Source: a virus (lineage: Duplodnaviria > Caudoviricetes). Taken from it: a DNA stretch of 61,756 bases. A program made the position numbers and the translations under genes. The DNA lies in the IMG/VR virus record IMGVR_UViG_3300042888_000791, positions 1 to 61,756 of that record, one strand, 5' to 3'. Below are positions 7,873 through 61,333 of the stretch, one piece after another; within the stretch, counting starts at the first letter, position 1; every line of letters starts with the position of its first letter. The notes under the pieces are model-generated. The model made no database searches. It saw only the letters and a program-made list of their open reading frames with translations, and was not told where the DNA came from.

Positions 7873-8121
7873 ATGACAGTATTAATAACTCTTTCAACAG
7901 CAGGTTCAGACTCTGGGCCATTTAATCTTTATTCAGATCTTGATGGATACACATCAGCATTTGAAACAAATGTAGCTAAAGTGGATCTATTAGCAGGGTA
8001 TCCTTCTGCATTAGTACCAGACTATACAGGCATAATTAGAATTATGTCTGATAATTCTTTATGTACTAATTATGTGGATATAATAATATCTGGTACCACA
8101 ACTACAACAACAACAATATAA
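7873..8121 (+). CDS. Small beta-domain protein with poly-Thr tail
   Basis: 82 aa; ends SGTTTTTTTI; similar to the N-terminus of ORF 17485. Confidence 0.7.
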   Translation: MTVLITLSTAGSDSGPFNLYSDLDGYTSAFETNVAKVDLLAGYPSALVPDYTGIIRIMSDNSLCTNYVDIIISGTTTTTTTI

Positions 8122-36500: not shown

Positions 36501-39500
36501 CTTAATTCCATTTGAAGCATCTCCTTCCTATATACAAATAAGAAGTATTATATACTCAATGATTGCTAAATCACTTACTTCTCCCAAAGTAGCAGGTGGT
36601 GCGCATGTACAGGTTCCTATTACTATGTTTGAAAAAGCATCCGAAGGAAGAAGTCTTATGAATAAAAATAAAAAAGGTGTTTGGGAAAAAATTAGTAAAG
36701 ATAAATATAAAACTCTTACAGCTGAAGAAAAATCTAAAGTGTTATTAGGCGATGATACACTTAAATTTTATGTAGATGAAGACGGTAAACGTTATTGTGA
36801 AATAATGGTTCCTCATTGGTTTAAAACTAAGTTTGGTAATATGACTGATGAAGAAATATTAAATTACTTAAATACTGAAGAAGGTTCTAAAATATTATCT
36901 GGTATTGGATTTAGAATACCTACACAATCACTTTCTTCTGTTGAAGTATTTAAAGTGAAAGGATTTCTTCCACAATACATGGGAGCAACTGTTGTAGTGC
37001 CTTCTGAGATAACAACTAAAGCGGGATCTGACTTTGATATTGATAAGTTAAATATGTACCTTAAATCAGTTTATACTGATGTTAATGGTAATGTTAGATT
37101 AGTTACATATAAAGGTTCTGAACAACAAACTAAAGATTTTTATGCACAAGTATTTGAAAATACAATTCAAAAAGAAATTAATACAATTACAAAGTATGAT
37201 GAATTTAGAACAATTTTATTTTCAATATTTGATACATTAGAAAGTCTTAATACTAATCTTTCAGAAAACCAACAAGATTTTTATTATGCTCATGGTAATA
37301 TGATTGATAATATTATTTTACAAGCTGATAATGAAGATATGTTACCTTCTGAATACATGCTAAATCAAATAAGTACTTTAGCAGGTAAGGAAGGGATATT
37401 AAATGCTAAATTATTATCCACAACATTAAAAGATAAATTTGTAAAAGAGATGTATAAAAAATCTCTTGAAAATGAATATTATGATTCATTAGAAAAATTA
37501 CTTACACTTCCTGAAAACTTTTCTAAATTAATAGCACCAGTAGGTGATGCTGGTTTAAAAGCTTTAGCTAAGCGTTTAGATGATTTACAAGGGTATAATG
37601 AAACAAGTGTTAAAAATAGATTGTTAGATAGAAATTATATGACAAATTTAAGACACTCATTTGTTGTAGCTAAAAAATGGGTAGGGGTAGCAGCTGTTAA
37701 TATTACTAATTTATCATTAAAACAAAAAAGTAAAATATATATTGATCCTACTAGATTTGAAAGTTTATCTAAAGAAGATAAAAGATTTATTGGAGATGGT
37801 ACAATATTATTAGACCATAATACAGTAGAAATAAATGGTGTAGATTATATTTCTTTATCCGGTACTACAGTAAAAGATAGTGACGAATTAATTTCTAGTA
37901 GATATTCTGGATATGCAACAGCATTTGTGGATGTAGCTAAAGATCCATTTATTATGAAAATTATTAAATCTGATTTAGTTATTGGTACATTTATGTTTTT
38001 AGAAAACATTGGTGCTGGTGAACAAGCAGCTTTCTTTTTAAACCAACCTATTATACAAGAGTATTTAAAACTATTAGATGCTAAAAGTTCAAGATGGTTA
38101 TTTACTAGAAAAAATATTACAGCTGTAAGAGAAAAGTTTCCAACTACAATTGAATTAATAAATTCTGTTGGTATTGATAAAACTAATTTTGAAAAAAATA
38201 TTACAGATTATTATACACCAGATAATAAATTAAGTGAAGCAAGAAATGCTGAACAACAACTAATATTAGAAGAGTTTTTAAAATATGCTAAAATGGCTGA
38301 GTTTAATTTTAAATTTACTCAAGCTACTAATTATGATACTACTAGATTTGGTAGTGGAGATGAATTTACAAGAAAACAATTAAGAACAGCAGAAGCATTT
38401 TCAAGTAATATTATATCCTCTACAAATAAAATTATGGATAATACTTTTATAGGTGTACAAGAAAACCTTTTAGGAAAATCTATGCAAGCTATGGGTGCTA
38501 TCTTTAAACTAGAAGAAGATCAATTTAGAGTGATAACAAATGCTGTATTAAAATCTTATGGGTTAAATAGCTTTATTGGTGCAGATGCATTTAATAAAAT
38601 AGCTTTACAAGTTAAATCTTCTTTCTTAGACTATATTATACAAACTAAAGTGGGTCTTAATAAAGATATTGAAGCACTTCTTGTTGATGAGTCAACTTCA
38701 GTAGCAAGTAGATTAGAACAAGCTAAAAAAGACTATCCTAATTTAGAAATTATTAGAGATTTACAAGTAGTATCTAGTGATAGAGTGGGTGGGGCAAAAA
38801 GTATTAAACTTAATGTTAATACTAAAGATGCTTATGATGAAAATCTTTATACTGGTTATATGAGAGAAATGAGAGATTATGATGAAAACTTAAAATCTCT
38901 TTATAATGATATTGTACATCTTTCTATATTACAAGGTACATACCAATCTCCTATATCTATTAAAAATATTATTCCAATAGAAGATTACAGTAGAATTGTA
39001 GAACCTATTATTACACCACTTGTAGCTGATGGAGATCTTGAAGCATTTACACAAGGTATGTTCCAAAGAAATAATTTTAAAAATACAGATATATTTCCAC
39101 AATTTCAACCTGCATTTTATGAAACTAATAATGAACCTATAATTGATCAATATTTTAATGAAACATATACATATTCCTCTCCAGCATTTATGAAAATTGA
39201 ATCTTTAGCAATAACACCTAATCAAAGAAAAGTTATGTTATTAGATGTTGAAAAAGATGCATTTAGTATAAACAATGAATTTCTTTCTGTACCTAGAGTA
39301 ATTAGAAATAAATGGAATGGAGATATTGATTTTATAACAGGTCAAACTATTCATCCAGCAGATTATTCTATGAGAAAAGCTAAAGGAGATCTTTCATTAA
39401 AAGATGTATTTGGTTACCAAAAAGTTAGACTTGATTCTGGAGAACCTCTTATTTATTATAAAAAAATAATAAAAGATGGAATAGTTACATATAAAGAACA

Positions 39501-41449: not shown

Positions 41450-44400
41450 ATGGCATGTATTTTAGAAATTAAAAAGACAATTAATGAAAGTATAGATAAA
41501 CAGCTTCCTTACAGAGAAGTTGTTATGTCTGACAAAGCAGCAAAAAGTATTAGTCAAAGTTTAAATCTTCTTTGGAATTCTGCTATAACAAGAATTGCTC
41601 AATATTCTTCTCAAGGAGGATATAGAGTAATAGTTAATTCTATAGAAGATGCTGCACAAAAAGAATTAAAAAAACAACAAGAAGCAGAAAAACTTTTTGA
41701 AAGAGATCTTGCATTTTTTAACGGAGATGAAGCTTTATTAGAACAAGAAAATCCTAAAGAAACATTTTATCAAAAAAATCAAACAATTTCTTCTGAGGGT
41801 AAAATAGCTTCTGAAAAAACTATTAGAGATTTGGCAGCAAGAATGTCTGATAGAATTGGTATGCCTTTTAAAATAGAATCTGATAGAACTAAAGAATACA
41901 AAGGTAAAATTGAAAATGGTGTAGCTTATGTTAATTTAGCTTATGCTACATTAGACACACCTATACATGAAATATTAGGACATCCTATTATTAGAGCTAT
42001 TAGAGATAGTGTTGATGAAAGAGGGGACAATGTATTATATCAAAATCTATTAAAAGAGCTTGAATACGGTGTAGGTGGAGAAGTGTTAGATAGGATTAAA
42101 AAAGATTACGTAAATAAACCAATAACTGAATCTAGTTATACAGGAGATGGTAGTGATTTTGAAAGTTGGAAAAAGAGTAATGTTGGAAAAGATAGTAGAT
42201 TTAAATATTCTTTAAAAGAACAACAAGAAGAAGCTCTTGTAGAACTTCTTGGTATGATGACAGCAGATAAACTTGATAATGTTAAAGATGGTAAATTAAT
42301 TTCTTTATTAAAAAGACTTCTTAAAGAAATAAAACAAGTTATTAAATCTCTTATTAAACAAAGAGAAGTGGAGATAGAAAATCTTCCTGATAATTTAACT
42401 ATTAATGATTTATCAAATCTATTAGCATATTCTAATAGTAAACTTATACTTCCAGGATATGAAGTAGAATATACTACTCCTGATAATATGAAGTTTAAAA
42501 CTTATCAAGAAGCTAGTAATCACATTAGTGAATTAGCTAAAAGCACTGAAGAGATTGATTTAAGTAATTTTACTCCAGTTAACAAATGGAGAGTAACAGG
42601 CATAAGCTGGGGTTATAACCAAGATGGTTCTGTAGAACAAAATGGTTATATAAATGAAGAATTTGACACTAAAGAAAAAGCAGAAGACTTTTATAGTCGG
42701 ATGAATAATACAAAATATGCAGGAGAGTTAACAATAAATAAAGCAAATTCTTTACCACAATCTTTTATAGATAAAAATAAAGAATACGAACAATCTAAAG
42801 AGATTGTAGAAGAATGGAAAAAAGTAAATAACATTCAATATAACCCTGAAGAAATATATTCAAGAGGACAAGAATTTAGTTCTGTAGTTGGAGCTTATTC
42901 TGATTTTGATGTAAATCTTATGATGCAGAATCTTCTGCAACATATTGAAGATAATGAAAAAGCTGGAGGTAAATTTGCTATATCTGCTTACACTAAACCT
43001 GTAGATAAAACTATAGGACATTTAGAAGGTGGAGGAGGTAAAATTAAGTTTAAAATTTATCCTAAATCTGAGGATATTTTGTGGGCAGCTAATACAGATG
43101 TTTATTCTGGTTCAGTATGGGATGCTTCTGAAAAAGTAAATAAAGATAAACAATCTGAATTATTAGGGGTTAGTTATACAAAATATCCTTCTATAAGAAA
43201 CATTAATGCAGTGCAGTCAAATCTTGCTTCTATTGTAGATGATTTAGCTCATCATCATAATGAATTAGGTATTGTTTTAACAGGTAATAACTTTAGACTT
43301 GAATATGATGAGGATATACCTTATCAAACTAAAAAAATTATTGATGGTATTAATTCTATTCTTGATCAGAAGTATGGTAAATTAGTTAAACCTGAGATTA
43401 AAAAAACTGATGTTTGGAATGTCTTTAGAGATAAAGAATATAAACAATCTTTTAATACAGAGAAAGATGCTGAAGAATTTATTAAAAAACAAAATGTACC
43501 TTATTTACACTCTATAAAAAAAGAAGTTTTAGGTGTTAAACCAACTCAAACTAATGAAAATACTACACACATTAATACAATTAAACAAAATGCTGGTTTA
43601 GTATCTTTATCATTTAATGAACAAGAAAAAGCAGTTTTAGAAAAAGTTGGTAATGTATTCTATCAAGATGGTATTAAAGTAGAAATTATTGAAGGTGACA
43701 ACAATAATCCAAAAAAAGTATATTTAAATGGTGTTGATACACCTTTATACAAAGAAGATTATGTTAATTTATTAACTGAAAAATATAAAGAATTATTTCC
43801 TTTTCCAAAAAAAGAATTTACAAATCAAGCTTTAATTAACACTAAAATAGCTAAACTTAAAGAAGTGGCTAAAGCACAACCAAGAAGCTTAATTAGAAGT
43901 GAAGTTATTGAACAACGTAAAGATTATACTAGAGGACAACAAACTTGGGATCCTGATTTTGAAGAATTGCCATTTCAAAAAATACCTTCTAAACTTAATG
44001 AATCTAAAACTATTAGTTCAATAGCCAGTAAAGAAACTATTGCTAAAGTTAAAGACTTTTTAAAACGTATAGGTGTTGATATAAGCTCAGCAAAAGAAAT
44101 AATAGTAAATGGTAAAAGAATAGATGCAAATGCTATAGCTAATATAACACAAGCTTTAATACAAGTTGTAGAGGGTAAAGAAGCACAATCTTTACCAGAA
44201 GAAGCTATGCACTTTGCTGTAGAAATTCTTGAACAGACTAATCCTAAATTATTTAATCAACTATTAAAAGAAATAGGTAATTATGCTTTATATAGTGAAG
44301 TGTTATCTGAGTATGCTAAAGATCCTAATTATCAAACTAAAGAAGGTAAACCTGACATTAGAAAGATTAAAAAAGAAGCTATAGGTAAAGTGTTAGCAGA

Positions 44401-47400
44401 AACAATTATTAAACAAGCAGAAGATATAAATGAAAAACCAGAATTGTTAACTAAAGTTAATTCTTGGTGGAGTCAAATATTAGATTATTTAAAAGGCTTA
44501 TTTAGTCAAAGTGGTTTTGATAAAGTTGCTATGGATATTCTTTCTGGAAAAAATATAGGGACAGCTGCAGATATAATAGCAGAAGAAGGTTCTGTATATT
44601 TACAAAAATCTAAACAAGATGATATTTATGATAGTATAAAAGAACTAGGAGAAACAATTACACCCACAAATGAAGGTTATTCTATAGATGGTAAACCTAT
44701 TAAACGTAGAGTATCTGATATAGTAAAAGATTGGTATGATAGAAAATTTACAAACAAGTCTTTAGTAGCTAGTGATTATGAAAAAGCTGTTAATGATTTA
44801 AAAGCTGAAAAAGGAACTGCTGGGCATGCTGCATTTGAATATGCTTTTGATTTATTTGTAGATGCTGATGGTTATTTAAGAGAAGATGAATTACCAGGTA
44901 CAGATTATGAAATTAAAAACCCTAATTTTCCTTTAGATTTTTATTTAATATTAAAAGAAAATCTTAGACAACGTCTTAATTCTTTTCCTAAAGATAATGG
45001 TGGTACAAGATTTATGGCTGAAGCTAGAATATATGATGCTAAAAGAGATCTTGCAGGTACAGTGGATTTTTTAGCTATTACTCCTGAAGGAAAAGTAAGT
45101 ATATTAGATTGGAAGTTTATGGATCTTAATATAGAAAAATATACAGATATTCCTTGGTATAAAGTAAATGCATGGAATACACAAATGGAACAATATAAAC
45201 TTATCATTGGAACAGTATATGGTGTTAAACCGGAAAACTTTGAACAAACAATGATGATTCCTATTAAAGCTATCTACACACAAGGTAATCCTAAGGAAGG
45301 TATTATGCCTAGACTTGATGGTATTAATATAGGTGATGTTAATATTAAAAATATTGAAGAGGATTATTTAATTCCTGTTGGATTAAAAGAACAATCTACA
45401 GGCATTAAAAAAGTAGATGATTTATTAGAAAAATTAAATGCTATTTACAAAAAACTGTCTGATCAAAAAGTTACAGAAGAAACTAAAACAGCAAAAGCTG
45501 AACAATTAAATGCTTTGTTTTCTGCTATTAGACAATTACAGATGAAACAAAATGTTATTCCATTAATTAATCAGGCTAAAATATTAAATAAACAAATTGA
45601 AAATCTTTTTGCACAACATGAAACAGAATTTAAAGATAAAGAAATAAATGATTTTAAAGATAATGAAATTGAAGATTTTACAAAAAAAATTGAAACTTTA
45701 AGAGAAGCTATAGAAGTATATTTAAATCTAGACCTTGAACTTAAATTTTTATTTGAAGGTGAACAAACTACTGAAGACAAAGAATTAAAACAAGATCTTA
45801 GAGATGTTGTAGATAATGCTAGAGATTATTATGATAGGTTAAAAACACTAGATGAAGAATTTACTGTTAAATTTATAGGTGGTACATCTACTGCAGAAAA
45901 AGTAGTTAAAGGTCTTGCAAGAATGTTCGGTACTACAGCAACTATTCAATTAGAAAGTCTTTCTGCTTTATATAAAAAAGCTAATAAAGCTTTTGGTTTA
46001 GCTGGTATGGATACCAGTACAGAGATTAAACGTCTTTCTGATTTAAAAGATGCATACCAAACATGGGCATTATCTAATGGTTTAACAATAAAAAATCAAT
46101 TTAATATTCTTAAAAAAGAAGATACAAATGAACTTATAGATGAATTTAATCCTGAGTTTTATTCTCAGTTAAAAGAAAAAATAGCTTTAAAAGATTTTTC
46201 TTGGATTAGAGCTAATATTGATATTCCTGGTTATAGAGAATTTTTAAAAAAGAAAAAAGAAGAAGAATATGATAGAATTGACTCTAAACTTAGAGTAGGT
46301 ACAGAAGAACAAATAGCTAATGAAATAAAAAGAGAAACATTTAAAGCTGAACAGTTATATAATACTAATGAACCAGAATCGGTTGGTTGGTTATTATATG
46401 ATGATATATCTAAGTATCCTAAAAGAGCAACATGGGAGTCTGATCAATGGAAAACTCTTAATAAAGATGAAAACAAACCCGCTCTTGATTTTTATAATTA
46501 TATTAGAGAGCGAAATGACTATTATAGATCTATAGGGTATATTCATGCTAAACAAGCTAGAATTTTTCTTCCTTGGGTAAGAAAAGGCCTTGCTGAAAAA
46601 ATGATTTTTGGTGGTAAAATAACTATAGGAGAACAGTTTTTAAGAAATATATCTGTAGATGAAGGTGATACAGGTTATGGCCAAATAGACCCTTTAAATG
46701 GACAACCTATTGATACTATTCCTATTTATTTAACAAGAAAATTAGAAGGAGAAGTATCTACTGACCTTTTTAAAACTATGGCAATGTATAATGAATTTGC
46801 AATTAAATTTAAATATTTATCAGAAATTGAAGGACAAGGTAGAGCATTAATACGTCTTGAAAAAAACAAAAAAGCTATTGCTACTTCTATGTTTAGTAAA
46901 ACTGAATATAAAAATAATGTATTACAATTTAATCCAGATAATAGTCAAAATACTAAACTTGTTGCATCAATGGTTAAAGCTATTATATACCAACAAAAAT
47001 ACGTACAAAATGAAACTTTTGATCAATTATTAGGAAATCTAGGAAGCTATGGTGAAAAAATAAATGCTAAACTTGGTAGAAAAATATTTCCAGAAGATTT
47101 AAAAGATAGACAAGTTAGTATTAATAAAGTGATTACTCAAATGAATAATACCTTTCAATTAAATGCTTTAGGTCTTAATGTTCTTTCTTCTCTTTCCAAT
47201 TTATTTGGTGGTAAAACACAATCATTTATTAATTCTGGCAAATGGTTTACTAAACAAGATTTTATAGCTACAGAACAATGGTTAGCTGCAGGTAAAATGG
47301 GAGGAAATGATAGACAAAAATCATTAGCAGCTATGGATTATTTTATGCCTTTTATTGCAGATTATAATAAACAAGCAATGCAAAAACTATCACTATCAAA

Positions 47401-48559
47401 ACTTAATGATCAAGCTGTTCAAGAATACTTAATGGTAATGATGAGAAAAAGTGAGGAATTTGTACAAACAACAAACTTCTTTAGTTTTTTAAGAAATTCA
47501 ATTATACAAGATGGTAATATTATAAATACAAGAGAGTATTTAAAATCTACAGATGAATACAAAGATTTTTATGCTGGTTCTCAAGAAGAAAGAACTACTA
47601 GAGCAGCTAAATTTGAAGCAGATGTAAAAGATTTAAATGCTAAACAAGGGGTAATGGCTTTAAGTACAGTAGTAAATGGTGAATTTGTAATCCCTGGAAT
47701 AGAAAGAAAATCAGATTCAGTTCTTGAATTAAGAAGAAAAGTACAAAGTTTTACAGCTGATGCATTAGGATCAATGGGTGAAGATAATAAACGCCTAATG
47801 AACATGACTGTTTATGGTAACTCTATGATGTTATTTAAAAATTGGATTCCTAGGCTTGTAGATGTACGTATGGGTAATTTAAAATATAATTCTGCTTCTG
47901 ACGCTTATGAATGGGGTAGAACTAGAATGATAGCTAGAATATTTTCAGAAGATTTACTTGGAGCTATTGGTAATTTAAAAAATTCTTTACTGGGTAATGA
48001 TAAAGGTATAGATTTTCTTAGACAACTTTATGAAAAAAAGAAAAATGATTATGAAGCTGATACTAATAAAGAATTAAAAATGACCGAAAGTGAGTTTATA
48101 GATCTTACTAAACAAAATATTAAAAATCAATTATTTGATTTATTAGCATTAGCAACAATGTGGTCATTATATTTAGGATTAAAAGCTTTAGCTCCCGATG
48201 ATGATGAAGATCCTGCAGTTAAAAATCAATATAAATTTTTACTAAAAGCAACTGATAAATTTAAAGATGAATTACAATATTTTTATGATCCAACAAGTAT
48301 ATCACAATTAGTAGGTAAAGGTATATTTCCTTCTTTAGCATTATTAGAAAATTATGCAAAAATTATAAAAAACTTTATGATTGAAAATTATGCTATTGTT
48401 TCTGGTAACGAAAAATTAGAACAAAAAAATTATGTTATTAAATATTTAATGAAAACTTTTCCATTATCTAGTCAAGCTGCTAGTTTAATGCCTTTATTTT
48501 ATCCTGCATTAGCAAAAGATCTTGGTATTAAAGCACAGTCTCATTACAATATTAGATAA
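41450..48559 (+). CDS. Giant cargo protein with zincin-like domains and a PD-(D/E)xK nuclease domain
   Basis: TPIHEILGH...EEALVE and a degenerate EEAMH...KEAIGK; GTAGH...AE..I...AGTVDFL...ILDWKF...QMEQY at about 44700-45270. Confidence 0.7.
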   Translation: MACILEIKKTINESIDKQLPYREVVMSDKAAKSISQSLNLLWNSAITRIAQYSSQGGYRVIVNSIEDAAQKELKKQQEAEKLFERDLAFFNGDEALLEQENPKETFYQKNQTISSEGKIASEKTIRDLAARMSDRIGMPFKIESDRTKEYKGKIENGVAYVNLAYATLDTPIHEILGHPIIRAIRDSVDERGDNVLYQNLLKELEYGVGGEVLDRIKKDYVNKPITESSYTGDGSDFESWKKSNVGKDSRFKYSLKEQQEEALVELLGMMTADKLDNVKDGKLISLLKRLLKEIKQVIKSLIKQREVEIENLPDNLTINDLSNLLAYSNSKLILPGYEVEYTTPDNMKFKTYQEASNHISELAKSTEEIDLSNFTPVNKWRVTGISWGYNQDGSVEQNGYINEEFDTKEKAEDFYSRMNNTKYAGELTINKANSLPQSFIDKNKEYEQSKEIVEEWKKVNNIQYNPEEIYSRGQEFSSVVGAYSDFDVNLMMQNLLQHIEDNEKAGGKFAISAYTKPVDKTIGHLEGGGGKIKFKIYPKSEDILWAANTDVYSGSVWDASEKVNKDKQSELLGVSYTKYPSIRNINAVQSNLASIVDDLAHHHNELGIVLTGNNFRLEYDEDIPYQTKKIIDGINSILDQKYGKLVKPEIKKTDVWNVFRDKEYKQSFNTEKDAEEFIKKQNVPYLHSIKKEVLGVKPTQTNENTTHINTIKQNAGLVSLSFNEQEKAVLEKVGNVFYQDGIKVEIIEGDNNNPKKVYLNGVDTPLYKEDYVNLLTEKYKELFPFPKKEFTNQALINTKIAKLKEVAKAQPRSLIRSEVIEQRKDYTRGQQTWDPDFEELPFQKIPSKLNESKTISSIASKETIAKVKDFLKRIGVDISSAKEIIVNGKRIDANAIANITQALIQVVEGKEAQSLPEEAMHFAVEILEQTNPKLFNQLLKEIGNYALYSEVLSEYAKDPNYQTKEGKPDIRKIKKEAIGKVLAETIIKQAEDINEKPELLTKVNSWWSQILDYLKGLFSQSGFDKVAMDILSGKNIGTAADIIAEEGSVYLQKSKQDDIYDSIKELGETITPTNEGYSIDGKPIKRRVSDIVKDWYDRKFTNKSLVASDYEKAVNDLKAEKGTAGHAAFEYAFDLFVDADGYLREDELPGTDYEIKNPNFPLDFYLILKENLRQRLNSFPKDNGGTRFMAEARIYDAKRDLAGTVDFLAITPEGKVSILDWKFMDLNIEKYTDIPWYKVNAWNTQMEQYKLIIGTVYGVKPENFEQTMMIPIKAIYTQGNPKEGIMPRLDGINIGDVNIKNIEEDYLIPVGLKEQSTGIKKVDDLLEKLNAIYKKLSDQKVTEETKTAKAEQLNALFSAIRQLQMKQNVIPLINQAKILNKQIENLFAQHETEFKDKEINDFKDNEIEDFTKKIETLREAIEVYLNLDLELKFLFEGEQTTEDKELKQDLRDVVDNARDYYDRLKTLDEEFTVKFIGGTSTAEKVVKGLARMFGTTATIQLESLSALYKKANKAFGLAGMDTSTEIKRLSDLKDAYQTWALSNGLTIKNQFNILKKEDTNELIDEFNPEFYSQLKEKIALKDFSWIRANIDIPGYREFLKKKKEEEYDRIDSKLRVGTEEQIANEIKRETFKAEQLYNTNEPESVGWLLYDDISKYPKRATWESDQWKTLNKDENKPALDFYNYIRERNDYYRSIGYIHAKQARIFLPWVRKGLAEKMIFGGKITIGEQFLRNISVDEGDTGYGQIDPLNGQPIDTIPIYLTRKLEGEVSTDLFKTMAMYNEFAIKFKYLSEIEGQGRALIRLEKNKKAIATSMFSKTEYKNNVLQFNPDNSQNTKLVASMVKAIIYQQKYVQNETFDQLLGNLGSYGEKINAKLGRKIFPEDLKDRQVSINKVITQMNNTFQLNALGLNVLSSLSNLFGGKTQSFINSGKWFTKQDFIATEQWLAAGKMGGNDRQKSLAAMDYFMPFIADYNKQAMQKLSLSKLNDQAVQEYLMVMMRKSEEFVQTTNFFSFLRNSIIQDGNIINTREYLKSTDEYKDFYAGSQEERTTRAAKFEADVKDLNAKQGVMALSTVVNGEFVIPGIERKSDSVLELRRKVQSFTADALGSMGEDNKRLMNMTVYGNSMMLFKNWIPRLVDVRMGNLKYNSASDAYEWGRTRMIARIFSEDLLGAIGNLKNSLLGNDKGIDFLRQLYEKKKNDYEADTNKELKMTESEFIDLTKQNIKNQLFDLLALATMWSLYLGLKALAPDDDEDPAVKNQYKFLLKATDKFKDELQYFYDPTSISQLVGKGIFPSLALLENYAKIIKNFMIENYAIVSGNEKLEQKNYVIKYLMKTFPLSSQAASLMPLFYPALAKDLGIKAQSHYNIR

Positions 48560-53062: not shown

Positions 53063-53620
53063 ATGGCAATACCCTCAAAACAAATCGGATGGAGCAATGA
53101 ATCAAACCTATTATGGCAAGTTGCTAAAGAAATAGAATATTTAACTAGAGCAACTACTAATGTAACGGTAACAAATACTATTGCAAATCCTGTACCTGTT
53201 TCTGGTCCTCTAACAGATACACAATTAAGAGCCACCCCTGTACCAATATCTCCAAGACCAAATACTACTGGTTCTAATGGAACTACACCTTATAAATTAA
53301 CATCTTTAGCTAGTACTAATGCTAATGTAGTTAAAGCTAGTGGAGGTAACTTATATTCTATTGTAGCTATCGGACTTACATCTACTGTGAGATATTTAAA
53401 ATTCTATAATAAAGCATCTGCTCCTACTGTTGGAACTGATATACCTGTTATGACTATTCCAGTTCCAGCTAACTTACAAGGTGCTGGTATTGCTATTCCG
53501 TTTTCTATGGGAGTTAATTTTTCTTTAGGAATTGCTATTGCTATAACAAGTGGTGTTGCTGATACAGACACTGGTGTTATTGGTGCTGGAGATGTAGTTA
53601 TAAACTTAACCTATGCTTAA
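53063..53620 (+). CDS. Putative virion decoration/fibre protein
   Basis: MAIPSKQIGWS N-terminal module plus a jelly-roll-like C-terminal domain (YLKFYNKASAPTVGTD.P). Confidence 0.6.
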   Translation: MAIPSKQIGWSNESNLLWQVAKEIEYLTRATTNVTVTNTIANPVPVSGPLTDTQLRATPVPISPRPNTTGSNGTTPYKLTSLASTNANVVKASGGNLYSIVAIGLTSTVRYLKFYNKASAPTVGTDIPVMTIPVPANLQGAGIAIPFSMGVNFSLGIAIAITSGVADTDTGVIGAGDVVINLTYA

Positions 53621-53778: not shown

Positions 53779-55605
53779 ATGAGTTTATTATCACAAGCAT
53801 CTTTAGTGATGACACCAAATGCTATTAAGGAGAGCAAAATCTATTCTATTATACCTACTAATGGTAATGGAGATGCAGATTTTACAAGAGGCACACTTGC
53901 AAGTAGTACATTAAGTGGTGCTAATGGATTAATTGAACTTGTTCCTTATAATTTATTATTAGTTAGTGAACGATTTAATGATGGAAATTGGATAAAACAA
54001 GGCATTGCTACAGTAATTCCAAATGCTATAAATTCTCCAAATTTAACTCTAACTGCTGATAAAATAGTTGAAGATACAACTAATGCTAATCATAGAGTTT
54101 ACCAAACAACTCCTGCTTTTACAACAGCAATTACAGTTACTTTTTCTATTTATGCAAAAGCTGGAGAAAGAAATTGGATGCGTTTAGGTATTTTTGATGG
54201 AACATCAAAATATTGTTTTTTTGATTTAACAAATGGAACTATAGGAACATCTTCAGGGTTGATTTCTCAATCAATTACATTAGCTAATAATGGTTGGTAT
54301 AGATGTACTATTACTGCTGATGTAATTGCCGTTAATGTTCAATCACAAATTTATTTAGCTTTAAGTAATGGTGGTTTTGGGTATTTAGGAGATGGAACAA
54401 GTGGATTATATTTATGGGGCGCACAAACAGTTCAAGGTTCTGTACCAAAAGATTACTTTTTCACAACAGATAGATTGAATGTTCCAAGATTAAACTATGA
54501 AAGTTATGGAGGTTGTCCAAGTATTTTGTTAGAACCTCAAAGAACAAATTTATTATTAAATAGTGTTTGGGCTGGTGGAGGTACTATTCCTACGAGTTGG
54601 ACTGCTAATTTTGTAACTGGAACATCAACTCCTATTGCAAGTATAAAAAATCCAAATGTAACTGCTTATAGGTTTGTTACTACTTCTGCTCAAAGACAAG
54701 AATTTTTTCAAAATTTTTCATTTAGTTCTACACCTACAAATTCAATAACTTGTTTTAGCGTTTATGTAGAATCAGTTACTACTGCAATTATTGTTTCTCA
54801 ACTTATAAGAATAAATCCAACAGGTGCTGGAGCTGGAACAACTGTGTTTTTAAAAAACAATGTAGTAATAGCTAGTGGAACAAATATAGAAGCTGGAAAT
54901 ACTTATTCAATTCAATACACTGTTACAACATCAGATACTTTTCAATTTAGAGTGGGTAGTGGTGTTAGTAGTACTGTGGCTGGTAACTTTGTAATATCAA
55001 TGCCTCAAGTTGAACAAGGATTATTCGCAAGAACAGCTTATAGCACTTCATTTATACCAACTACAACTGGTAGTGTAACAAGAAATGCTGATGTGTTTAC
55101 AAGAAATAATTTATATGCAAATGGAATAATTACAGATATAGGTGGCACTTGGTTTTTAGAAATTAATAATAATTTAAGTTTAATTAGAGATGGTACTTTA
55201 CCTTCGGGAATATCTTTAGATGTAAATCCAGCTTTTTTTGATGATGGGTTTCTTATAAGAAATAATTTTAATGGTACTTCTGTAAGATTAGGAATTGAAG
55301 TAAGACAAGGAGGTAGTATTGTTACTTCTTATTCAACACAAGAAAATACAGTAAAAATTGGAATAAAATGGACTGGTTCTAATTTTGTTGGTTATGTAAA
55401 TGGTATTGCACAAATAGCTGGTTCATTTACACCTATACAAATGAACTATCTTACTGCAAAGGCAGATGATGTTCCAAAGTATATAAAATCAATGATGTTT
55501 TTTCCACTTCCATTAAGTAATTCAGAAATGGTTGCTTTAACATCATCAACTAATTATATATCATACGAAAATATGGCAATTAACTTAAACTACGTAATAC
55601 AATAA
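53779..55605 (+). CDS. Fibre/spike protein with CBM-like and LamG/concanavalin-like domains
   Basis: NGWYRC, LWGAQ, LLEPQRTNL and TSFIPTT...TRNAD motifs; paralogue of the next ORF. Confidence 0.7.
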   Translation: MSLLSQASLVMTPNAIKESKIYSIIPTNGNGDADFTRGTLASSTLSGANGLIELVPYNLLLVSERFNDGNWIKQGIATVIPNAINSPNLTLTADKIVEDTTNANHRVYQTTPAFTTAITVTFSIYAKAGERNWMRLGIFDGTSKYCFFDLTNGTIGTSSGLISQSITLANNGWYRCTITADVIAVNVQSQIYLALSNGGFGYLGDGTSGLYLWGAQTVQGSVPKDYFFTTDRLNVPRLNYESYGGCPSILLEPQRTNLLLNSVWAGGGTIPTSWTANFVTGTSTPIASIKNPNVTAYRFVTTSAQRQEFFQNFSFSSTPTNSITCFSVYVESVTTAIIVSQLIRINPTGAGAGTTVFLKNNVVIASGTNIEAGNTYSIQYTVTTSDTFQFRVGSGVSSTVAGNFVISMPQVEQGLFARTAYSTSFIPTTTGSVTRNADVFTRNNLYANGIITDIGGTWFLEINNNLSLIRDGTLPSGISLDVNPAFFDDGFLIRNNFNGTSVRLGIEVRQGGSIVTSYSTQENTVKIGIKWTGSNFVGYVNGIAQIAGSFTPIQMNYLTAKADDVPKYIKSMMFFPLPLSNSEMVALTSSTNYISYENMAINLNYVIQ

Positions 55606-55609
55606 TAAA

Positions 55610-56860
55610 ATGGCAGACGCAAGTTTACAAATAGGAAATGGCAATTGGGCAGTAAAGACTTCTCTCTTATTAGGGTATAACATTGTTTCTAATCGTTATA
55701 ACCCAATAGAAATTGGTGTAACAAGAGAAACAACAGGTTCAAGAACAAATCAAGCTGGAATTATTGATTATAAAGATAATAACATAGCAAGGATAAATTA
55801 TGAAGGAGGAGTTGGTAGTTTATTGTTAGAACCACAAAGGACTAATTTAGTTTTACAGAGTGAAGCATTTGATACAGTTAGTTGGACTAAAATTGCAACA
55901 ACTATAACTGCTGATTCTATTGTTTCTCCAAGTGGAATTCAAAATGCTGATACAATTATAGCTAATGGAGTAAGTGGTTTTCATTATATATATAATTCTG
56001 CAACTGTTTCATCTGGAATAACATACAGTATTAGTGTATACGCAAAAAAAGGTACAAATAATTTTATACAATTAGCTGGAGGAACTATAGTTTATGGAAA
56101 TAATTTTTATGCAAATTTTGACTTAAACAATGGTTTAGTAGGTACTGTAGGTTCAACTGCAACCGCAAGTATTAAGTCAGTTGGGAATGGTTGGTATAGA
56201 TGTGTAATTACTGGGAATACAATATCAAATATTATAAATGATGCTTTTGCTGTTATAGGGATAGTATCATCAGCAACATCTGTAAGAGCTGAAGCAAATA
56301 TTTTAACAACAAATATATATCTTTGGGGCGCACAAATTGAACAAGGAGCTTATCCAACTTCATACATCCCAACTACTACTACAGCATTAACAAGAAACGC
56401 AGATACATTTACAAGAAATAACATTTACACAAATGGACTTATAACAAGTGCAGGTGGTACTTGGTTTGTTGAATTGAATAATAATCTTAATTTAATTAGG
56501 GATAACGGTTTAGGTTTTTTTTTAGACACTTCATCATCAGGAATTACAAATGGATTTATTATAAGAAGTAATACTGCTCTTTCATCAAGGCTAGTAGTTG
56601 AAGTTAGACAAGGTGGAAGTATAATTTCGACTACTGATGTATTGACTAATACGGTAAAAATAGCTATAAAATGGGATGGAACTTTAGCTAATGTATATGT
56701 GAATGGAGTAATAAGATTAACTAATATTCCTTTTACAACTACTTTGATGGAATTTTTAAATACAAATTCTTCAATTGGTATGCCTTATTACATAAAATCA
56801 ACAATGCTATTCCCTACTCCTTTAACTAATACAGAAATGATTAATTTAACAACTTTATAA
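55610..56860 (+). CDS. Fibre/spike protein, paralogue of 53779
   Basis: Shares LLEPQRTNL, NGWYRC, LWGAQ, TSYIPTT...TRNAD.FTRNN.Y.NG.IT..GGTWF and the C-terminal domain. Confidence 0.7.
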   Translation: MADASLQIGNGNWAVKTSLLLGYNIVSNRYNPIEIGVTRETTGSRTNQAGIIDYKDNNIARINYEGGVGSLLLEPQRTNLVLQSEAFDTVSWTKIATTITADSIVSPSGIQNADTIIANGVSGFHYIYNSATVSSGITYSISVYAKKGTNNFIQLAGGTIVYGNNFYANFDLNNGLVGTVGSTATASIKSVGNGWYRCVITGNTISNIINDAFAVIGIVSSATSVRAEANILTTNIYLWGAQIEQGAYPTSYIPTTTTALTRNADTFTRNNIYTNGLITSAGGTWFVELNNNLNLIRDNGLGFFLDTSSSGITNGFIIRSNTALSSRLVVEVRQGGSIISTTDVLTNTVKIAIKWDGTLANVYVNGVIRLTNIPFTTTLMEFLNTNSSIGMPYYIKSTMLFPTPLTNTEMINLTTL

Positions 56861-56861
56861 A

Positions 56862-57149
56862 ATGATTTACAAACTTAAATACGCAGACAAAAAAACTGCA
56901 ATATCTGATTTACTAGACAAAGGAGTTTATGTAATGCAAACAATTGATGAAGAAGAAGTCCTATCTTTCGGAGAGGGTATTCACGCAATTGTAGAACTTG
57001 GTAAAATTGTTATTAACCAACCTACCGAAGAAATTAAGCCTATATTTGCAGAGGGGTATCATTACGATGTTATGTCTGAACAAGAAATTGATTTTAAAGA
57101 GAATGAAATAATAGTTAACAACCCAAAGCACGGATTTTTAGGGCATTAA
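56862..57149 (+). CDS. Hypothetical protein (possible fibre chaperone)
   Basis: 95 aa, acidic, follows the fibre genes. Confidence 0.55.
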   Translation: MIYKLKYADKKTAISDLLDKGVYVMQTIDEEEVLSFGEGIHAIVELGKIVINQPTEEIKPIFAEGYHYDVMSEQEIDFKENEIIVNNPKHGFLGH

Positions 57150-57179: not shown

Positions 57180-58196
57180 ATGAAAGAATTAAAGTTTATC
57201 CAAGCTTGCCCAAGCGACATTTATTATACATGGCAAGTAAATCTTTGGATGGAAAGTCTTAAAGAAATAGGACATTCAGACAAAGCAATTAATTTAATTT
57301 TTACTCCTAAAGGTAGAGAAAATAGAGATAAATGGAAACAAGTAGAAAACTTATATCCAGAAGCTGAATTTTACTTTTATGAAGATGAAGACCAATTAAG
57401 TAAATTAATAGGAATATATATTCCTGTGCTTAGACCATATGTTCTTTGGAAACATTTTAAATTACACCCAGAATTAAGTGAAAAAGCTATTTTCTACTGT
57501 GATTCTGACATTTTGTTTATGAAAGATTTTAATGTAGATCAATTCTTAAATGATGATATTAATTATTTATCAAACACAAATAGTTATATTAATGCTAAGT
57601 ATTTTGATAGTAAAATTAATCAAGTGTTACCAGAAAAACTAGAAGAATATAAAACTAGAGACATTCTTGCAGAAATAGCAAGTGTTATAGGTATAAGTAG
57701 AGAAGTTTGTGAGACTAATAATGATCATTCAGGAGGAGCACAATATTTATTAAAAAATGTAGATGGTGCTTTTTGGAGTAAAGTGATGAATGATTGTATT
57801 CTTATAAGAACTTATTTACTAAAAATAAACAGAGAGTTTTTTAAAGATGAAAATTCAGGATTTCAAAGTTGGTGTGCTGATATGTGGGCTGTTTTATGGA
57901 ATATTTGGTTAAGAGATCAAGAAACAAAAGTGGTTCCTGAATTAAATTTTGCTTGGGCCACAGATCCAATAATAAAATTAGATACACATACCATCTTTCA
58001 TAATGCAGGAATAGTTTCTGAAACAGGAAATGGTTATCCAGCTTTTTATAAAGGCAAATATCATATGGGAACAGATCCTACAAAAGATTCTTACTTAGAT
58101 GTTATTCTTAATAATGAAATATCACAAAAGTTTTGTACGTGGTTTTATGCCACTAAATTAAATGAAATTAAAAATAAATATAAATTAAATTATTAA
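57180..58196 (+). CDS. GT-A fold glycosyltransferase resembling peptidyl-Ser/Hyp O-glycosyltransferases
   Basis: YY.WQ, Y.P..RP, YCDSDILF (DxD at 57501-57509), GGAQY, W.ADMWA and IFHNAG motifs. Confidence 0.7.
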   Translation: MKELKFIQACPSDIYYTWQVNLWMESLKEIGHSDKAINLIFTPKGRENRDKWKQVENLYPEAEFYFYEDEDQLSKLIGIYIPVLRPYVLWKHFKLHPELSEKAIFYCDSDILFMKDFNVDQFLNDDINYLSNTNSYINAKYFDSKINQVLPEKLEEYKTRDILAEIASVIGISREVCETNNDHSGGAQYLLKNVDGAFWSKVMNDCILIRTYLLKINREFFKDENSGFQSWCADMWAVLWNIWLRDQETKVVPELNFAWATDPIIKLDTHTIFHNAGIVSETGNGYPAFYKGKYHMGTDPTKDSYLDVILNNEISQKFCTWFYATKLNEIKNKYKLNY

Positions 58197-58214
58197 TAAA
58201 TAAATATAAATATT

Positions 58215-58625
58215 ATGACACCAAACAAACGTGACTTAAAAGCGTATTCTCGCTTTGATGGAACTGGAAGAATAGTTCCAGGAAGTACTGTACTTAGACG
58301 TAACAAACCTAGAGTAGGTAAATGGATTGAAATGCAAACATATGAATGTTGTAATGATGTTACATTGTTATATACTGTTTCTTCCCCAACAATTACTGAT
58401 GTATCAGTAAGACTTTTCTGTAATGGTACAGAAATAAATTACTTATATACAGCTAGTGATTCAACTACTATTGCATCATTGATTAATATATTAAATAATA
58501 CATTTAATGTATTAGGAGTATTTACAAATCCTAGTGGTAACATTATTCAATTAGTAATGTCTGGAGCACAAAAAGCAGCATTATGTCCTGTAGGTACATT
58601 AACTTTTACTGTTATAGCTGATTAA
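58215..58625 (+). CDS. Putative structural protein with N-terminal LKA..RFDG.GRIV.GS domain
   Basis: 136 aa; the N-terminal ~45 aa are paralogous to the next mini-ORF. Confidence 0.65.
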   Translation: MTPNKRDLKAYSRFDGTGRIVPGSTVLRRNKPRVGKWIEMQTYECCNDVTLLYTVSSPTITDVSVRLFCNGTEINYLYTASDSTTIASLINILNNTFNVLGVFTNPSGNIIQLVMSGAQKAALCPVGTLTFTVIAD

Positions 58626-58634
58626 AACAAATAT

Positions 58635-58811
58635 ATGTCAAATACAACAACTTTAAAAGCTTTTGTTAGATTTGATGGGTCTGGACGTATAGTTGCAGGA
58701 AGCTTAATTCTTAGAAAGAATAAGCCAAAAATAGGTAGGTGGAAAGAGATTACAACATATGAGTGTTGTAATCCTACCACTACCACCACCACTACAGAAC
58801 ATTTATTGTAA
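58635..58811 (+). CDS. 58-aa mini-protein with poly-Thr tail (absent from the ORF track)
   Basis: MSNTTTLKAFVRFDGSGRIVAGSLILRKNKPKIGRWKEITTYECCNPTTTTTTTEHLL; clear paralogue of the ORF 58215 N-terminus. Confidence 0.85.
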   Translation: MSNTTTLKAFVRFDGSGRIVAGSLILRKNKPKIGRWKEITTYECCNPTTTTTTTEHLL

Positions 58812-58835
58812 TAACTGATATAAAAAATAAACAAA

Positions 58836-59255
58836 ATGGCATTAAAATCCCTATTTCCTGAAGAAATGATGGAATCAAAAGGAAGTTCTAGCCTTACACT
58901 AGAAAGCATAGCAGGAAAGCTAACATACTTCCATGAACAATTACATTTATTACATTGGCAAACTAGTTCATATGCAGAGCACCAAGCTCTTGGTGGATTA
59001 TATGATTATGTACATGATTTTAAAGATGAAGTGGTAGAAAAAATAATGGGTTATACAGGAAAAAAACCTAGAGCTTTTAAAATAGAACCTCTATCTGATA
59101 ATGCAGATTGTAAAGGTGTAGTAGTAGCATTAATATCTTTTGCTAGCCAACTAGAAGAATTTGCAGAAGCTAATAATATGCCAGATATTGAAAATATTTC
59201 TCAATCATTATCTGGAGAAGCAGCTAAAACTAAATTTTTATTAACATTATCATAA
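58836..59255 (+). CDS. Ferritin/Dps-like four-helix protein (DUF5856-like)
   Basis: LHWQT.SYAEH.ALG.LYD...D..VE..MG di-iron-type motif. Confidence 0.75.
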   Translation: MALKSLFPEEMMESKGSSSLTLESIAGKLTYFHEQLHLLHWQTSSYAEHQALGGLYDYVHDFKDEVVEKIMGYTGKKPRAFKIEPLSDNADCKGVVVALISFASQLEEFAEANNMPDIENISQSLSGEAAKTKFLLTLS

Positions 59256-59543
59256 ATGCTAATAAATAAAAGATTTTTTCCTAAAATAATGTTAGATAAT
59301 GATATTATTTATTTAGCTCACTTAGAGGGAGTAATAGATTCTGTTGATGAGTTATCTAGTATGGAAATTACTAAAAATAATGAATCTTATAGATTTAGGC
59401 TAGCACCTAGTCTTCCTAAATATATACCAATGCTTTTAGAAGAAATACTAAAGTTGCATAATTTATTTAGAATCAAACTTGATCTCAGTAAATCAATAAA
59501 AACTTCTGGAACAATTGTATTTGAAATAAATTTAAACAAATAA
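59256..59543 (+). CDS. Hypothetical protein
   Basis: 95-aa ORF coupled to the upstream stop. Confidence 0.6.
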   Translation: MLINKRFFPKIMLDNDIIYLAHLEGVIDSVDELSSMEITKNNESYRFRLAPSLPKYIPMLLEEILKLHNLFRIKLDLSKSIKTSGTIVFEINLNK

Positions 59544-59547
59544 TATT

Positions 59548-60363
59548 ATGCCTACATTTATAAAAACAGGGTTTTGGGAAAAAACTCAAAAAGGATTTGA
59601 TCATTGGTTAAATCTTGATTTATTCGTAGCACAAGCTGTGCCTACACCAAATTTACAACAAGTAACTGATACTGGATATATTACTACTACTGCTATCACT
59701 GTAGCAGCATTAAATTTAACAGACGTTAGTGCACCAGCATTAAAAGGATCTTTAGTATATAATAATCATATTTTAAATTTCTATAATGAAAATTCTGAAA
59801 GTATTACTACTGTAGATTCTGTTAATAGAATAAATGCTTTAGGGTTTGCTTCTGCATTAAATAATACTGGACAAGATGTAAATGCTTTTGGTGCTACAGC
59901 AGCTCAAGATAATAATGCAAATAATGTAAATGCTTTTGGAAGTGTTGCATGTGCCACTAATCAAGGAAATGATGTAAATGGTTTTGGTAATGGATCAGCT
60001 TACAATAATGTAGGAAGTAGTTTAAATGCTTTAGGAAATTCAGCTGCAAATATTAATAGTGGAAATTATGTAAATGCTTTAGGTAATAATTCAGCATATA
60101 ATAATACAGGAAATGATGTAAACGCATTTGGAAATACAGCTGCTTATAATAATGCAGGAGATAATGTAAATGCTTTTGGAAATGGAGCAGGAAATGATAA
60201 CTTACTTAGTGGTCAAACTATTTTTTCTAATGCATCTATACCAACTTATGCTGATCGTACTGCTGCAGCTTTAGCTATAACTATATTTGAAGGTGCTTCT
60301 CCTGGTTGTACTTATTTATACTATGATTTATCAAGAAATTATATATCAGCAATTATAACATAA
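59548..60363 (+). CDS. Fibre protein with 14-residue Asn-rich beta-roll (YadA-head-like) repeats
   Basis: About 9 tandem VNA[FL]GxxAAxNNxGxx repeats; N-terminus shared with ORF 60374. Confidence 0.7.
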   Translation: MPTFIKTGFWEKTQKGFDHWLNLDLFVAQAVPTPNLQQVTDTGYITTTAITVAALNLTDVSAPALKGSLVYNNHILNFYNENSESITTVDSVNRINALGFASALNNTGQDVNAFGATAAQDNNANNVNAFGSVACATNQGNDVNGFGNGSAYNNVGSSLNALGNSAANINSGNYVNALGNNSAYNNTGNDVNAFGNTAAYNNAGDNVNAFGNGAGNDNLLSGQTIFSNASIPTYADRTAAALAITIFEGASPGCTYLYYDLSRNYISAIIT

Positions 60364-60373
60364 ATAATTAAAT

Positions 60374-61333
60374 ATGGCAACATTTATTAAAGCAGGTTTT
60401 TGGGAACAATTATGTAAACCTTGTACAGGATACAAGGGATGGCTTAATTTAGATAAGTTTGTAAAAGATATTGCAGGAGAAGGTATAGTGGGTCCACAAG
60501 GACCCCAAGGACCTCAGGGTGTTCAAGGAATGCAAGGAGTACAAGGAGATACTGGTCCACAAGGAACAGCTGGAAATTCTGTAACAATATTAGGATCAGT
60601 TGCTGATTATGCAGCTTTTTTAGCTGGTCCTGGTAGTTCTCCTGGAGCTAATATAGGTGATGCATGGATTTTATTATCTGATGGATCACTAATGAGTTGG
60701 AATGGTACAGTTTGGTTTGATGCAGGAGATATAAAAGGACCTCCTGGTGACCAAGGTCCACAAGGAGAACAAGGTGTGCAAGGTGTACAGGGAATACAAG
60801 GTGTGCAAGGACCAACAGGTCTTACTGGATTATTTGCTCAAACTGCTGATGGAGGTCCTGTAACTGCTACAACAGTAGAAACAACAATAATAGGCCCTGG
60901 GGTAGGTACATTAACTGTACCTGCAAATGGATTTCAAATAGGAGATAGTTTTGCATGTGCATTAGATGGTATAATCACTTGTTTAGGTTCAGCAACATTA
61001 CATGTGCGTGTTAGAACATTAGCTGGAGTGCTTTTAGCTGATACAGGTATAATTGCTATGGAAGCTACAACTAATAAGTCTTGGTTAATAAATTTATATT
61101 TTACAATAAGAACATTAGGAGGAGCAGGTGTTGCATCAATATCATCAGGAGGATTGTTTTCTTATATTAAAAATTCAGGAACTAATTTTGAAGGATATGT
61201 ATTAAGCACACTTAATAATACAACATTTAATACAACTATTGACAATACACTCGTAGTTACTATGCAATGGAATACCACAAGCGCAGGTAATTCAATTCTT
61301 TCAAGAAACTTTACGCTTACAAAATTATATTAA
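60374..61333 (+). CDS. Collagen-like fibre protein with C-terminal beta-sandwich
   Basis: Two (Gly-X-Y)n blocks ([13 protein letters not shown]...) flanking a short globular insert. Confidence 0.8.

Follow-up and report, generated by a model that had tools for sequence, protein, structure and literature searches.

The gene at positions 57180-58196 (plus strand) of a 61,756-nucleotide (nt) viral DNA, IMG/VR record IMGVR_UViG_3300042888_000791 (this whole stretch is called the window below), encodes a 338-amino-acid (aa) member of a large protein family that is conserved in phages and bacteria and carries no functional annotation. The window comes from a crAss-like phage of fresh water. Across the family, the gene is linked to, and co-varies with, polythreonine (poly-Thr) tracts in virion proteins and threonine-rich peptides. 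Our preferred reading, to which we assign a probability of about 0.65, is that the enzyme is a cytoplasmic, metal-dependent protein O-glycosyltransferase acting on the poly-Thr tracts of virion proteins. What is new here is the combination of an unannotated enzyme family with a simple candidate acceptor signature, found in crAss-like phages, in phages of Firmicutes, and in peptide clusters of Bacteroidota.

A large family with conserved enzyme-like motifs

The gene is a single open reading frame (ORF) with an ATG start. An initial annotation, made from the DNA letters alone, had pointed to six motifs in its product, and the ORF and all six are present: YYTWQ at residues 15-19, YIPVLRP at 80-86, CDSD with its DSD at 108-110 (the cysteine being C107), GGAQY at 185-189, WCADMW at 231-236, and a late histidine in HNAG at 274-277. 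Most of them are conserved across the family, which has more than 2,600 homologues. In alignment A1, with 68 members at 29-87% identity, Y80, D108, D110, Y136, F257, H274, and K291 are fully invariant, while R85, G185, G186, Q188, Q229, and D234 are kept in at least 90% of the rows; the tryptophan of the WQ motif is invariant in two sub-alignments (A2 and A3). A second, non-overlapping set (A4) of 60 sequences, made up of 59 members and the divergent member P0265, has the same D-x-D, histidine, and lysine invariant, with D113, D115, and H262 as the equivalents of D108, D110, and H274. Such conservation across a large family is more than chance would give. That family numbers 2,666 proteins at E ≤ 1e-3 in a collection clustered at 90%, and 766 representatives in a library clustered at 50%. 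One homologue of 460 aa (P0278) carries the Hint/intein Pfam flags PF07591, PF01079, and PF14890 and is an intein-bearing copy.

The only family to which the 338-aa protein itself could be matched is phrog_4417, with residues 4-320 lying on profile positions 1-286 of 293 (E 1.2e-52). The match is nearly full length, but this PHROG has neither a functional annotation nor a link to poly-Thr. The protein is predicted to be soluble, its highest 19-residue Kyte-Doolittle mean being 0.91, far under the level of a membrane helix; the absence of a signal peptide and of a transmembrane segment, noted initially, holds on this measure.

A DxD motif followed by a late histidine is the usual mark of metal-dependent glycosyltransferases. 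This GT-A-type pair of a DxD and a C-terminal histidine is present in the enzyme and invariant in both alignments, and the enzyme is probably a metal-dependent glycosyltransferase. Fusions in relatives are consistent with this assignment, as the family domain is joined there to glycosyltransferase family 2 (GT2), GT6, Gly_transf_sug (GT32-type), and methyltransferase domains. Among 48 longer forms, seven carry GT2 plus Gly_transf_sug, two GT6, one GT2, two Methyltransf_24, and six radical SAM plus SPASM. Five complete relatives of the window phage (G811-G815; loci L093, L097, L107, L140, and L147) each hold one or two GT2 genes on the opposite strand, 6-8 kb from the enzyme gene. In the window's own genome such GT2 genes would fall past the 3' end of the record. 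No gene for an NAD-dependent sugar epimerase was found in the complete relatives. What we infer from sequence and gene context is glycosyl transfer as such, threonine as the source of the acceptor atom, the sugar and the fold, and any biological benefit.

Poly-threonine genes around the enzyme gene and elsewhere in the window

Within the window, 11 runs of at least six threonines occur in six proteins, whereas 1,000 shuffles within the proteins gave 0.022 on average. The codons of the runs are a mixture of ACT, ACA, and ACC, which argues for selection on the protein and not on a DNA repeat. All six proteins are encoded on the plus strand and are candidate acceptors. Next to the enzyme lies a 58-aa protein (58635-58811; alignment A8) that consists of an N-terminal domain, here called type A, and PTTTTTTT. 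The others are found at the opposite end of the window: a protein with the C-terminal poly-Thr tail CITTTTTTTTA (2119-3258), a leucine-rich-repeat protein with Thr/Ser tracts of 21 and 6 residues (5389-7044; Pfam LRR_8, E 8.8e-10), a protein with three poly-Thr tracts, each near a cysteine (7086-7862), an 82-aa protein ending in GTTTTTTTI (7873-8121), and a virion structural protein of 1,930 aa whose four poly-Thr tracts include a C-terminal one (11688-17480; phrog_37948, E 4.6e-113).

Related aquatic phages show that the position beside the enzyme is a regular one. We compared 80 related loci and the window (81 in all), with ORFs called by a crude greedy choice of the longest ORF and then clustered. 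The enzyme gene heads a fixed core in which one, two, or three small genes come next, then a gene for a DUF5856/Dps-like protein and one for a 95-aa protein; this core is set among variable fibre-like genes. Downstream genes begin with a type A module of about 47 aa (LKAFVRFDGSGRIV...YECCN), continue with poly-Thr such as PTTTTTTTVAPTTTTTTT, and in some cases add a variable C-terminal domain. Upstream genes have a different N-module (MAIPSRQIGWS..NLLWQISKQLE), likewise followed by poly-Thr. The type A domain occupies the first gene after the enzyme in 63 of 80 loci, the second in 45 of 78, and the third in 14 of 77, and is never upstream. Thr/Ser tracts of at least six residues are found in the gene directly upstream in 43 of 79 loci, in the first gene downstream in 47 of 80, and in the second in 40 of 78; four genes away or farther, no more than two loci have them. 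A poly-Thr gene lies within three genes of the enzyme in 77 of the 81 loci, and such genes make up 161 of 466 genes near the enzyme versus 4 of 1,004 far from it, counts which describe one lineage and not 81 independent events because the loci are closely related.

In the window itself, a type A paralogue of 136 aa (58215-58625, plus strand) has a globular C-terminal domain and no poly-Thr. Contigs from two lake/freshwater DNA runs (X3 and X4) join position 58196 to 58641, skipping 444 nt, so that the 136-aa gene is missing, which means that natural populations differ in the cassette behind the enzyme gene. On the upstream side, a protein with a type C N-domain (MAIPSKQIGWS..NLLWQ..; 53063-53620, plus strand; alignment A9) has no poly-Thr in its window copy, and in related phages this domain precedes poly-Thr in the genes directly upstream of the enzyme. 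Searches of the Protein Data Bank (PDB) with the three N-terminal modules returned nothing meaningful, and matches of the type C module to designed helical-repeat entries were taken as compositional.

Two features of these genes do not follow from the proposed glycosylation of the tracts. Many flanking genes consist of the N-module and poly-Thr and nothing more. In the aquatic lineage, the tracts are nearly always bracketed by cysteines, which in those at 5389-7044, 7086-7862, 11688-17480, and 58635-58811 mostly lie no more than about 10 residues away. An invariant CC directly ahead of the tract closes the type A module. A minus-strand ORF of 95 aa with a poly-Val run (58622-58909) is spurious, being the reverse complement of poly-Thr codons, and mirror ORFs of this kind appear in many related loci.

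Firmicutes phages and tests of co-occurrence

Homologues of the enzyme extend well beyond the aquatic lineage. A tblastn search of cultured phages gave 77 records with a homologue, mostly from phages of Enterococcus, Lactobacillus, Staphylococcus, and Lactococcus, and 80 loci came from a scan of prokaryote genomes. In 17 phage or prophage loci of Firmicutes, the homologue is located in the virion module, directly after the gene for the major capsid or the major tail (tail-tube) protein. In 13 of the 17, the product of the adjacent upstream gene has a C-terminal poly-Thr tail; for example, the tail is ...NGTTTTTSTTTTTTSSTTTTTTTQASSK in gp50 of phiFL1A and ...GVTTTTTTTTTTHHD in orf13 of phage 1706. 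When both proteins are considered, the capsid, the tail tube, or frequently the two together carry such tails in 16 of 17 loci. A putative phage transferase accompanied by Ser/Thr-rich extensions on major virion proteins, the combination expected of virion glycosylation of the mycobacteriophage type, is found in these 16 loci; in the window, six proteins carry poly-Thr tracts, one of them a virion structural protein.

To find if enzyme and tracts occur together, we relied on two comparisons. For the tail tube, homologues of the phiFL1A protein were present in 76 phage records, ten of which were examined. Two that bear the enzyme, Enterococcus phage phiFL1A and Lacticaseibacillus phage R3.3 (E 1e-92 to 1e-94 for the family profile over the whole record), have tail tubes that end in poly-Thr. 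In six phages without a whole-record profile match (Streptococcus phages phiGBSVK-C, Javan505, Javan311, and Javan616; Lactobacillus phages phiJL-1 and ATCC8014), the tail tubes stop just short or end without a run of at least five threonines. The enzyme-less phage phiLpTT2 was excluded since its match fell in two pieces that left the C-terminus unresolved. Lactococcus phage 1706, with the enzyme and poly-Thr tails, is an additional positive that is not homologue-matched. In the other comparison, we counted the codon pattern (ACN)7, which had 12, 26, 8, 20, and 23 matches in the five complete aquatic relatives and 3 in the enzyme-bearing Chryseobacterium phage MA9V-3, versus 0 in four crAss-like phages that have homologous ring proteins but not the enzyme (Fpv1, FpV4, cr128_1, and bajarodcaudo virus 1). 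Reversed-pattern controls gave 0 everywhere. A match in cr128_1 (12.9 bits, with two stops) was taken as noise. The samples are small, and both tests point the same way.

Peptide clusters of Bacteroidota

A third setting is cellular. In 47 loci of Bacteroidota (Chitinophaga, Sphingobacterium, Pedobacter, Mucilaginibacter, and others), a long form of 440-770 aa is found in bacteriocin-like clusters. Of the 47, 35 encode a C39-ABC exporter or a C39-VKOR-thioredoxin protein and 15 a GT2, and in 39 a partner gene that we call c1 follows the long form. Under a strict pattern, 14 of 47 loci have GG-leader peptides (...LSREQLKDVLGG) with cores rich in glycine, serine, cysteine, and threonine. The C-terminal extension of the long form has a weak match to beta-1,4-galactosyltransferase 7 (beta4GalT7, GT7-like; E 0.004). 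The c1 profile has a weak match to class III lanthionine synthetases (E 0.01), short at 47 residues and lying in their cyclase part, and an hhalign comparison of c1 with the family alignment gave a probability of 0.06. The clusters (L016-L073, e.g., L027:2657-12011) also hold HlyD, a thioredoxin-like protein, and sometimes a radical SAM enzyme.

These clusters may represent an undescribed class of modified peptide. The closest comparison is to the clusters for glycocins such as sublancin, with a SunS-type GT2, a C39 ABC exporter, and thiol-disulfide oxidoreductases. GG-leader peptides, the C39-ABC exporter, HlyD, VKOR/thioredoxin proteins, and at times a GT2 are shared. The glycocin clusters rely on the SunS-type GT2, whereas those of Bacteroidota have the unannotated family, as its cellular long form and not the phage gene, together with a LanC-like partner.

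Relation to plant HPAT and SGT1 enzymes

From the order of its motifs, the initial annotation had likened the enzyme to two plant families, hydroxyproline arabinosyltransferase (HPAT; GT95, PF23452) and SGT1 (peptidyl-serine alpha-galactosyltransferase; GT96). The functional half of that proposal, soluble cytoplasmic glycosylation of hydroxy-amino-acid repeats in virion proteins, is well backed by gene context, with linkage to poly-Thr in three independent settings and fusions to known glycosyltransferase domains. The kinship with GT95 and GT96 is not shown and is only a lead. It had been proposed because the motifs seem to parallel the string Y..WQ / Y...NKP / D.D / W..EMY / H of the plant enzymes.

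The Pfam model PF23452 had no match to the 338-aa protein at E ≤ 10. When it was compared with 137 distinct members, three weak matches were obtained (E 0.012-0.045), all under the Pfam gathering cut-off of 23.9 bits: 2 of 68 in one set (best E 0.012), 0 of 10 in another, and 1 of 59 in the third (E 0.045). HPAT was the sole family matched by more than one member in the Pfam scan of the 68. The precomputed HPAT flag stood on 0 of the 288 homologue rows listed, among them the 120 listed relatives of the divergent member P0265. With PF23452 as the query, the window record, 10 homologue-bearing genomes, and 401 genomes of one phylum gave no match, and the controls were silent too, so that these results carry little weight. 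In 401 genomes of a second phylum, the family profile found the seed genome and one 16-bit fragment only. The search for longer homologues turned up no plant SGT1-like protein. Neighbours in the ESM-Atlas language-model space offer a lead only: 22 of 30 named clusters carry Pfam HPAT, the share of HPAT in the two top clusters is 10% (largely viral) and 58% (bacterial), and six further neighbour clusters carry DUF7164.

HPATs are described as Golgi type II membrane proteins (PMC8012813), and one source calls them plant-specific (PMC4738400). HPAT/SGT1 enzymes are reported there to place the first sugar onto hydroxy-amino-acid repeats of structural proteins and small peptides (PMC8012813, PMC4738400), and the predicted folds are given as GT-A-like for GT95 and novel for GT96 (PMC8476585). 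The phage enzyme resembles them in length and in its DxD. The hydrophobic N-terminus that a type II anchor would need is absent. The acceptor in plants is hydroxyproline (Hyp) or Ser-Hyp4, whereas for the phage enzyme it is likely threonine, and the plant enzymes are Golgi-anchored in plant hosts, whereas this family occurs in phages and bacteria and is without a membrane anchor. On our preferred reading, the enzyme works like an initiating protein O-glycosyltransferase of the HPAT/SGT1 type; membership in that family is unproven and fails Pfam's own cut-off. A bolder version would make it the founding phage member of a large, unannotated bacterial and viral branch of the HPAT/SGT1 superfamily dedicated to homopolymeric threonine. 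In phages as far apart as crAss-like podophages and the siphophages of Firmicutes, it would act with portable poly-Thr tails and linkers to give capsids, tail tubes, and fibres a mucin-like coat of cytoplasmic origin, and in Bacteroidota it would serve glycosylated secreted peptides. This is possible, and we think it rather doubtful.

Proposed mechanism and alternative explanations

Under our preferred reading, the soluble enzyme would bind a host nucleotide-sugar with a divalent metal and move a first sugar to threonine hydroxyls of poly-Thr tracts in the cytoplasm of the infected cell, before or during assembly. One group of acceptors would be the fibre-like proteins encoded on either side of the gene, with their modular build of short N-module, poly-Thr linker, and variable C-terminal domain, and another would be the structural proteins elsewhere in the window with poly-Thr linkers or tails. 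The GT2 enzymes of the complete relatives could lengthen the glycan. Once glycosylated, the tracts on fibres, capsid, and tail would form hydrophilic stalks or tails that are stiff and resist proteases, giving a mucin-like coat. Candidate benefits include solubility and stability, shielding from proteases or defence systems, masking from host or immune recognition, and adhesion.

Several observations weigh against protein glycosylation by this enzyme. A Pfam search of the 338-aa protein gave no family at E ≤ 10, NCBIfam gave no match for six family members, and sequence and profile searches of the PDB with the family gave spurious matches, none of them credible. An hhalign comparison of the A1 alignment with one of the neighbouring GT2 genes gave a probability of 0.1, which is uninformative at such family distance. 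The tie of the gene to a hydroxy-amino-acid repeat is strong in position and co-occurrence, while a glycan on the proteins is a prediction. The window genes directly upstream of the enzyme (53779-57149) are without poly-Thr, and of the two type A paralogues that follow the enzyme a single one has it. In Firmicutes, the adjacent gene is without a poly-Thr tail in 4 of the 17 loci, and at one of them (L079) there is none nearby. The crude ORF calls and the single lineage behind the aquatic counts belong here as well. The tracts could even be mere flexible linkers of hypervariable fibre regions.

The enzyme might act on threonine by another chemistry, either by activating the hydroxyl (phospho-, nucleotidyl-, or glycosyl-) for a lanthipeptide-like elimination or by adding a non-sugar group. 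It is the Bacteroidota clusters that leave room for this, given the frequent c1 partner with its weak likeness to a lanthionine cyclase and the precursor cores rich in Thr/Ser and Cys; the six longer relatives fused to radical SAM and SPASM peptide-maturase domains and the want of a direct glycosyltransferase family match add to it. However, the c1 match is weak and covers only 47 residues, the capsid and tail-tube tails of phages are without cysteine partners for lanthionine rings, and the DxD with its late histidine is typical of metal-dependent glycosyltransferases. The fusions to GT2, GT6, GT32-like, and sugar-type methyltransferase domains, together with the GT7-like extension, also fit the building of a glycan, and we regard a non-glycosyl chemistry as improbable.

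The doubt can also be placed on the acceptor and not on the reaction. Phages are well known to encode glycosyltransferases whose targets are O-antigen, teichoic acid, or DNA, and with that precedent the enzyme could modify a host envelope glycan, for superinfection exclusion or receptor masking, or the phage DNA, the poly-Thr neighbours being a by-product of a hypervariable fibre region. That the closest upstream genes in the window are without poly-Thr, and that the complete relatives also have tracts far from the gene, would suit such an enzyme. Its adjacency to poly-Thr, however, repeats in unrelated architectures (13 of 17 loci in the siphophages of Firmicutes, and the peptide clusters of Bacteroidota), gene and tracts co-vary among otherwise homologous phages, and the protein is without the membrane segment that Gtr-type systems of envelope modification need. 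A non-protein acceptor is distinctly improbable on this evidence. A role as an assembly factor or chaperone for fibres or tails bearing poly-Thr would require no catalysis. In siphophages, the homologue occupies the place of tail assembly chaperones, between the tail-tube and tape-measure genes, and the silence of enzyme family searches would agree with it; yet phiFL1A keeps its usual chaperone genes downstream, the family is fused to bona fide enzymes and is present in cellular peptide clusters without virion genes, and the DxD, histidine, and lysine are invariant across 29-87% identity. A non-enzymatic role is very improbable.

Virion glycosylation in other systems and implications

Protein glycosylation of the virion by virus-encoded enzymes is described in giant viruses and in mycobacteriophages (PMC9614988, PMC11256854, PMC10568470, PMC12582341). 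Glycosyltransferases of mycobacteriophages are reported to modify virion proteins, with glycans that alter the production of anti-phage antibodies (PMC10568470, PMC12582341, PMC11256854). The poly-Thr tails of Firmicutes phages have a parallel in these systems, though the latter belong to actinophages, whereas the present family is found in crAss-like and Firmicutes phages, has a homopolymeric threonine signature, and is without a Pfam glycosyltransferase match. The parallel lies in the glycan sites, which in the work of Freeman and colleagues (2023, Cell Host Microbe) reportedly lie in extensions at the C-termini of capsid and tail-tube subunits. To our knowledge, phage-encoded virion glycosylation has so far been shown in actinophages.

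Mucin-type O-glycosylation in animals, in which GT27 GalNAc-transferases act on Ser/Thr-rich tandem repeats, provides another comparison. Mucins are densely O-glycosylated on Thr-rich repeats that contain proline, and a phage analogue such as TTTTTTT-VAP-TTTTTTT would give extended, protease-resistant stalks. The animal process takes place in the Golgi, whereas that of the phage would be cytoplasmic and viral, and no sequence kinship is claimed. In a literature search that covered neither subscription papers nor supplements, nothing linked poly-threonine with a phage glycosyltransferase or with phage glycosylation; no paper linked HPAT with phages, and none named PF23452.

If our reading is correct, virion glycosylation would also occur in the crAss-like phages of Bacteroidota and in phages whose hosts are enterococci, lactococci, lactobacilli, and staphylococci. 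A poly-Thr run together with the enzyme gene would serve as a sequence rule for modified virion proteins, and several thousand "hypothetical" proteins (phrog_4417) would gain a function. A glycan coat would bear on phage stability, on adsorption, on immune recognition in therapy, and on the biology of dairy phages. Should the link to plant HPAT/SGT1 also be true, those enzymes would have prokaryotic and viral relatives that are soluble and easily expressed, and that could be structural models. Glycosylation of poly-Thr is testable at once in cultured phages.

Genome context and other features of the window

The record has a CheckV completeness of 53% and a GC content of about 29%. Its place among crAss-like phages is seen in two tail ring proteins, Pfam CrAss_Ring_2 (9522-10247; E 2.3e-19) and CrAss_Ring_1 (10744-11682; E 4.3e-8), and in two giant ORFs of 4,642 aa (27520-41448) and 2,369 aa (41450-48559). 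The nearest cultured relatives of the ring protein, at 24% identity, are phages of Flavobacterium psychrophilum. Three DNA runs from three studies other than the possible source, all labelled lake or freshwater metagenome, contained 66-83% of the sampled words of the region; runs with a small share were not used to judge habitat. The enzyme is borne by 80 related viral contigs at 65-90% identity, and five complete relatives of 113-121 kb have one copy each. Contigs of one metatranscriptome (X23) are 85-95% alike over parts of the enzyme and poly-Thr genes; since they come from relatives and DNA carry-over is possible, we did not count them as expression.

Tail and fibre proteins surround the enzyme gene. 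Downstream on the plus strand lie two fibre-like genes with a type B N-domain (MPTFIKTGFW...LNLD), one with NAFG-type repeats (59548-60363; alignment A10) and one with collagen-like GxQ repeats (60374-61333; Pfam Collagen, E 5.3e-9, and PHROG tail and tail-fibre families). Between them and the poly-Thr gene are the conserved neighbours of the core, a DUF5856/Dps-like protein of 139 aa (Pfam DUF5856, E 3.6e-12) and the 95-aa protein (together 58836-59543, plus strand). The Dps-like gene, of a kind labelled "starvation-inducible" (58836-59255), follows the poly-Thr genes in 70 of 81 loci, and the 95-aa gene does so in 72. Farther upstream, a protein of 1,389 aa (20623-24792) contains an internal L-alanyl-D-glutamate peptidase segment (phrog_2307, residues 392-458, E 5.5e-13) and is probably a virion-associated cell-wall hydrolase.

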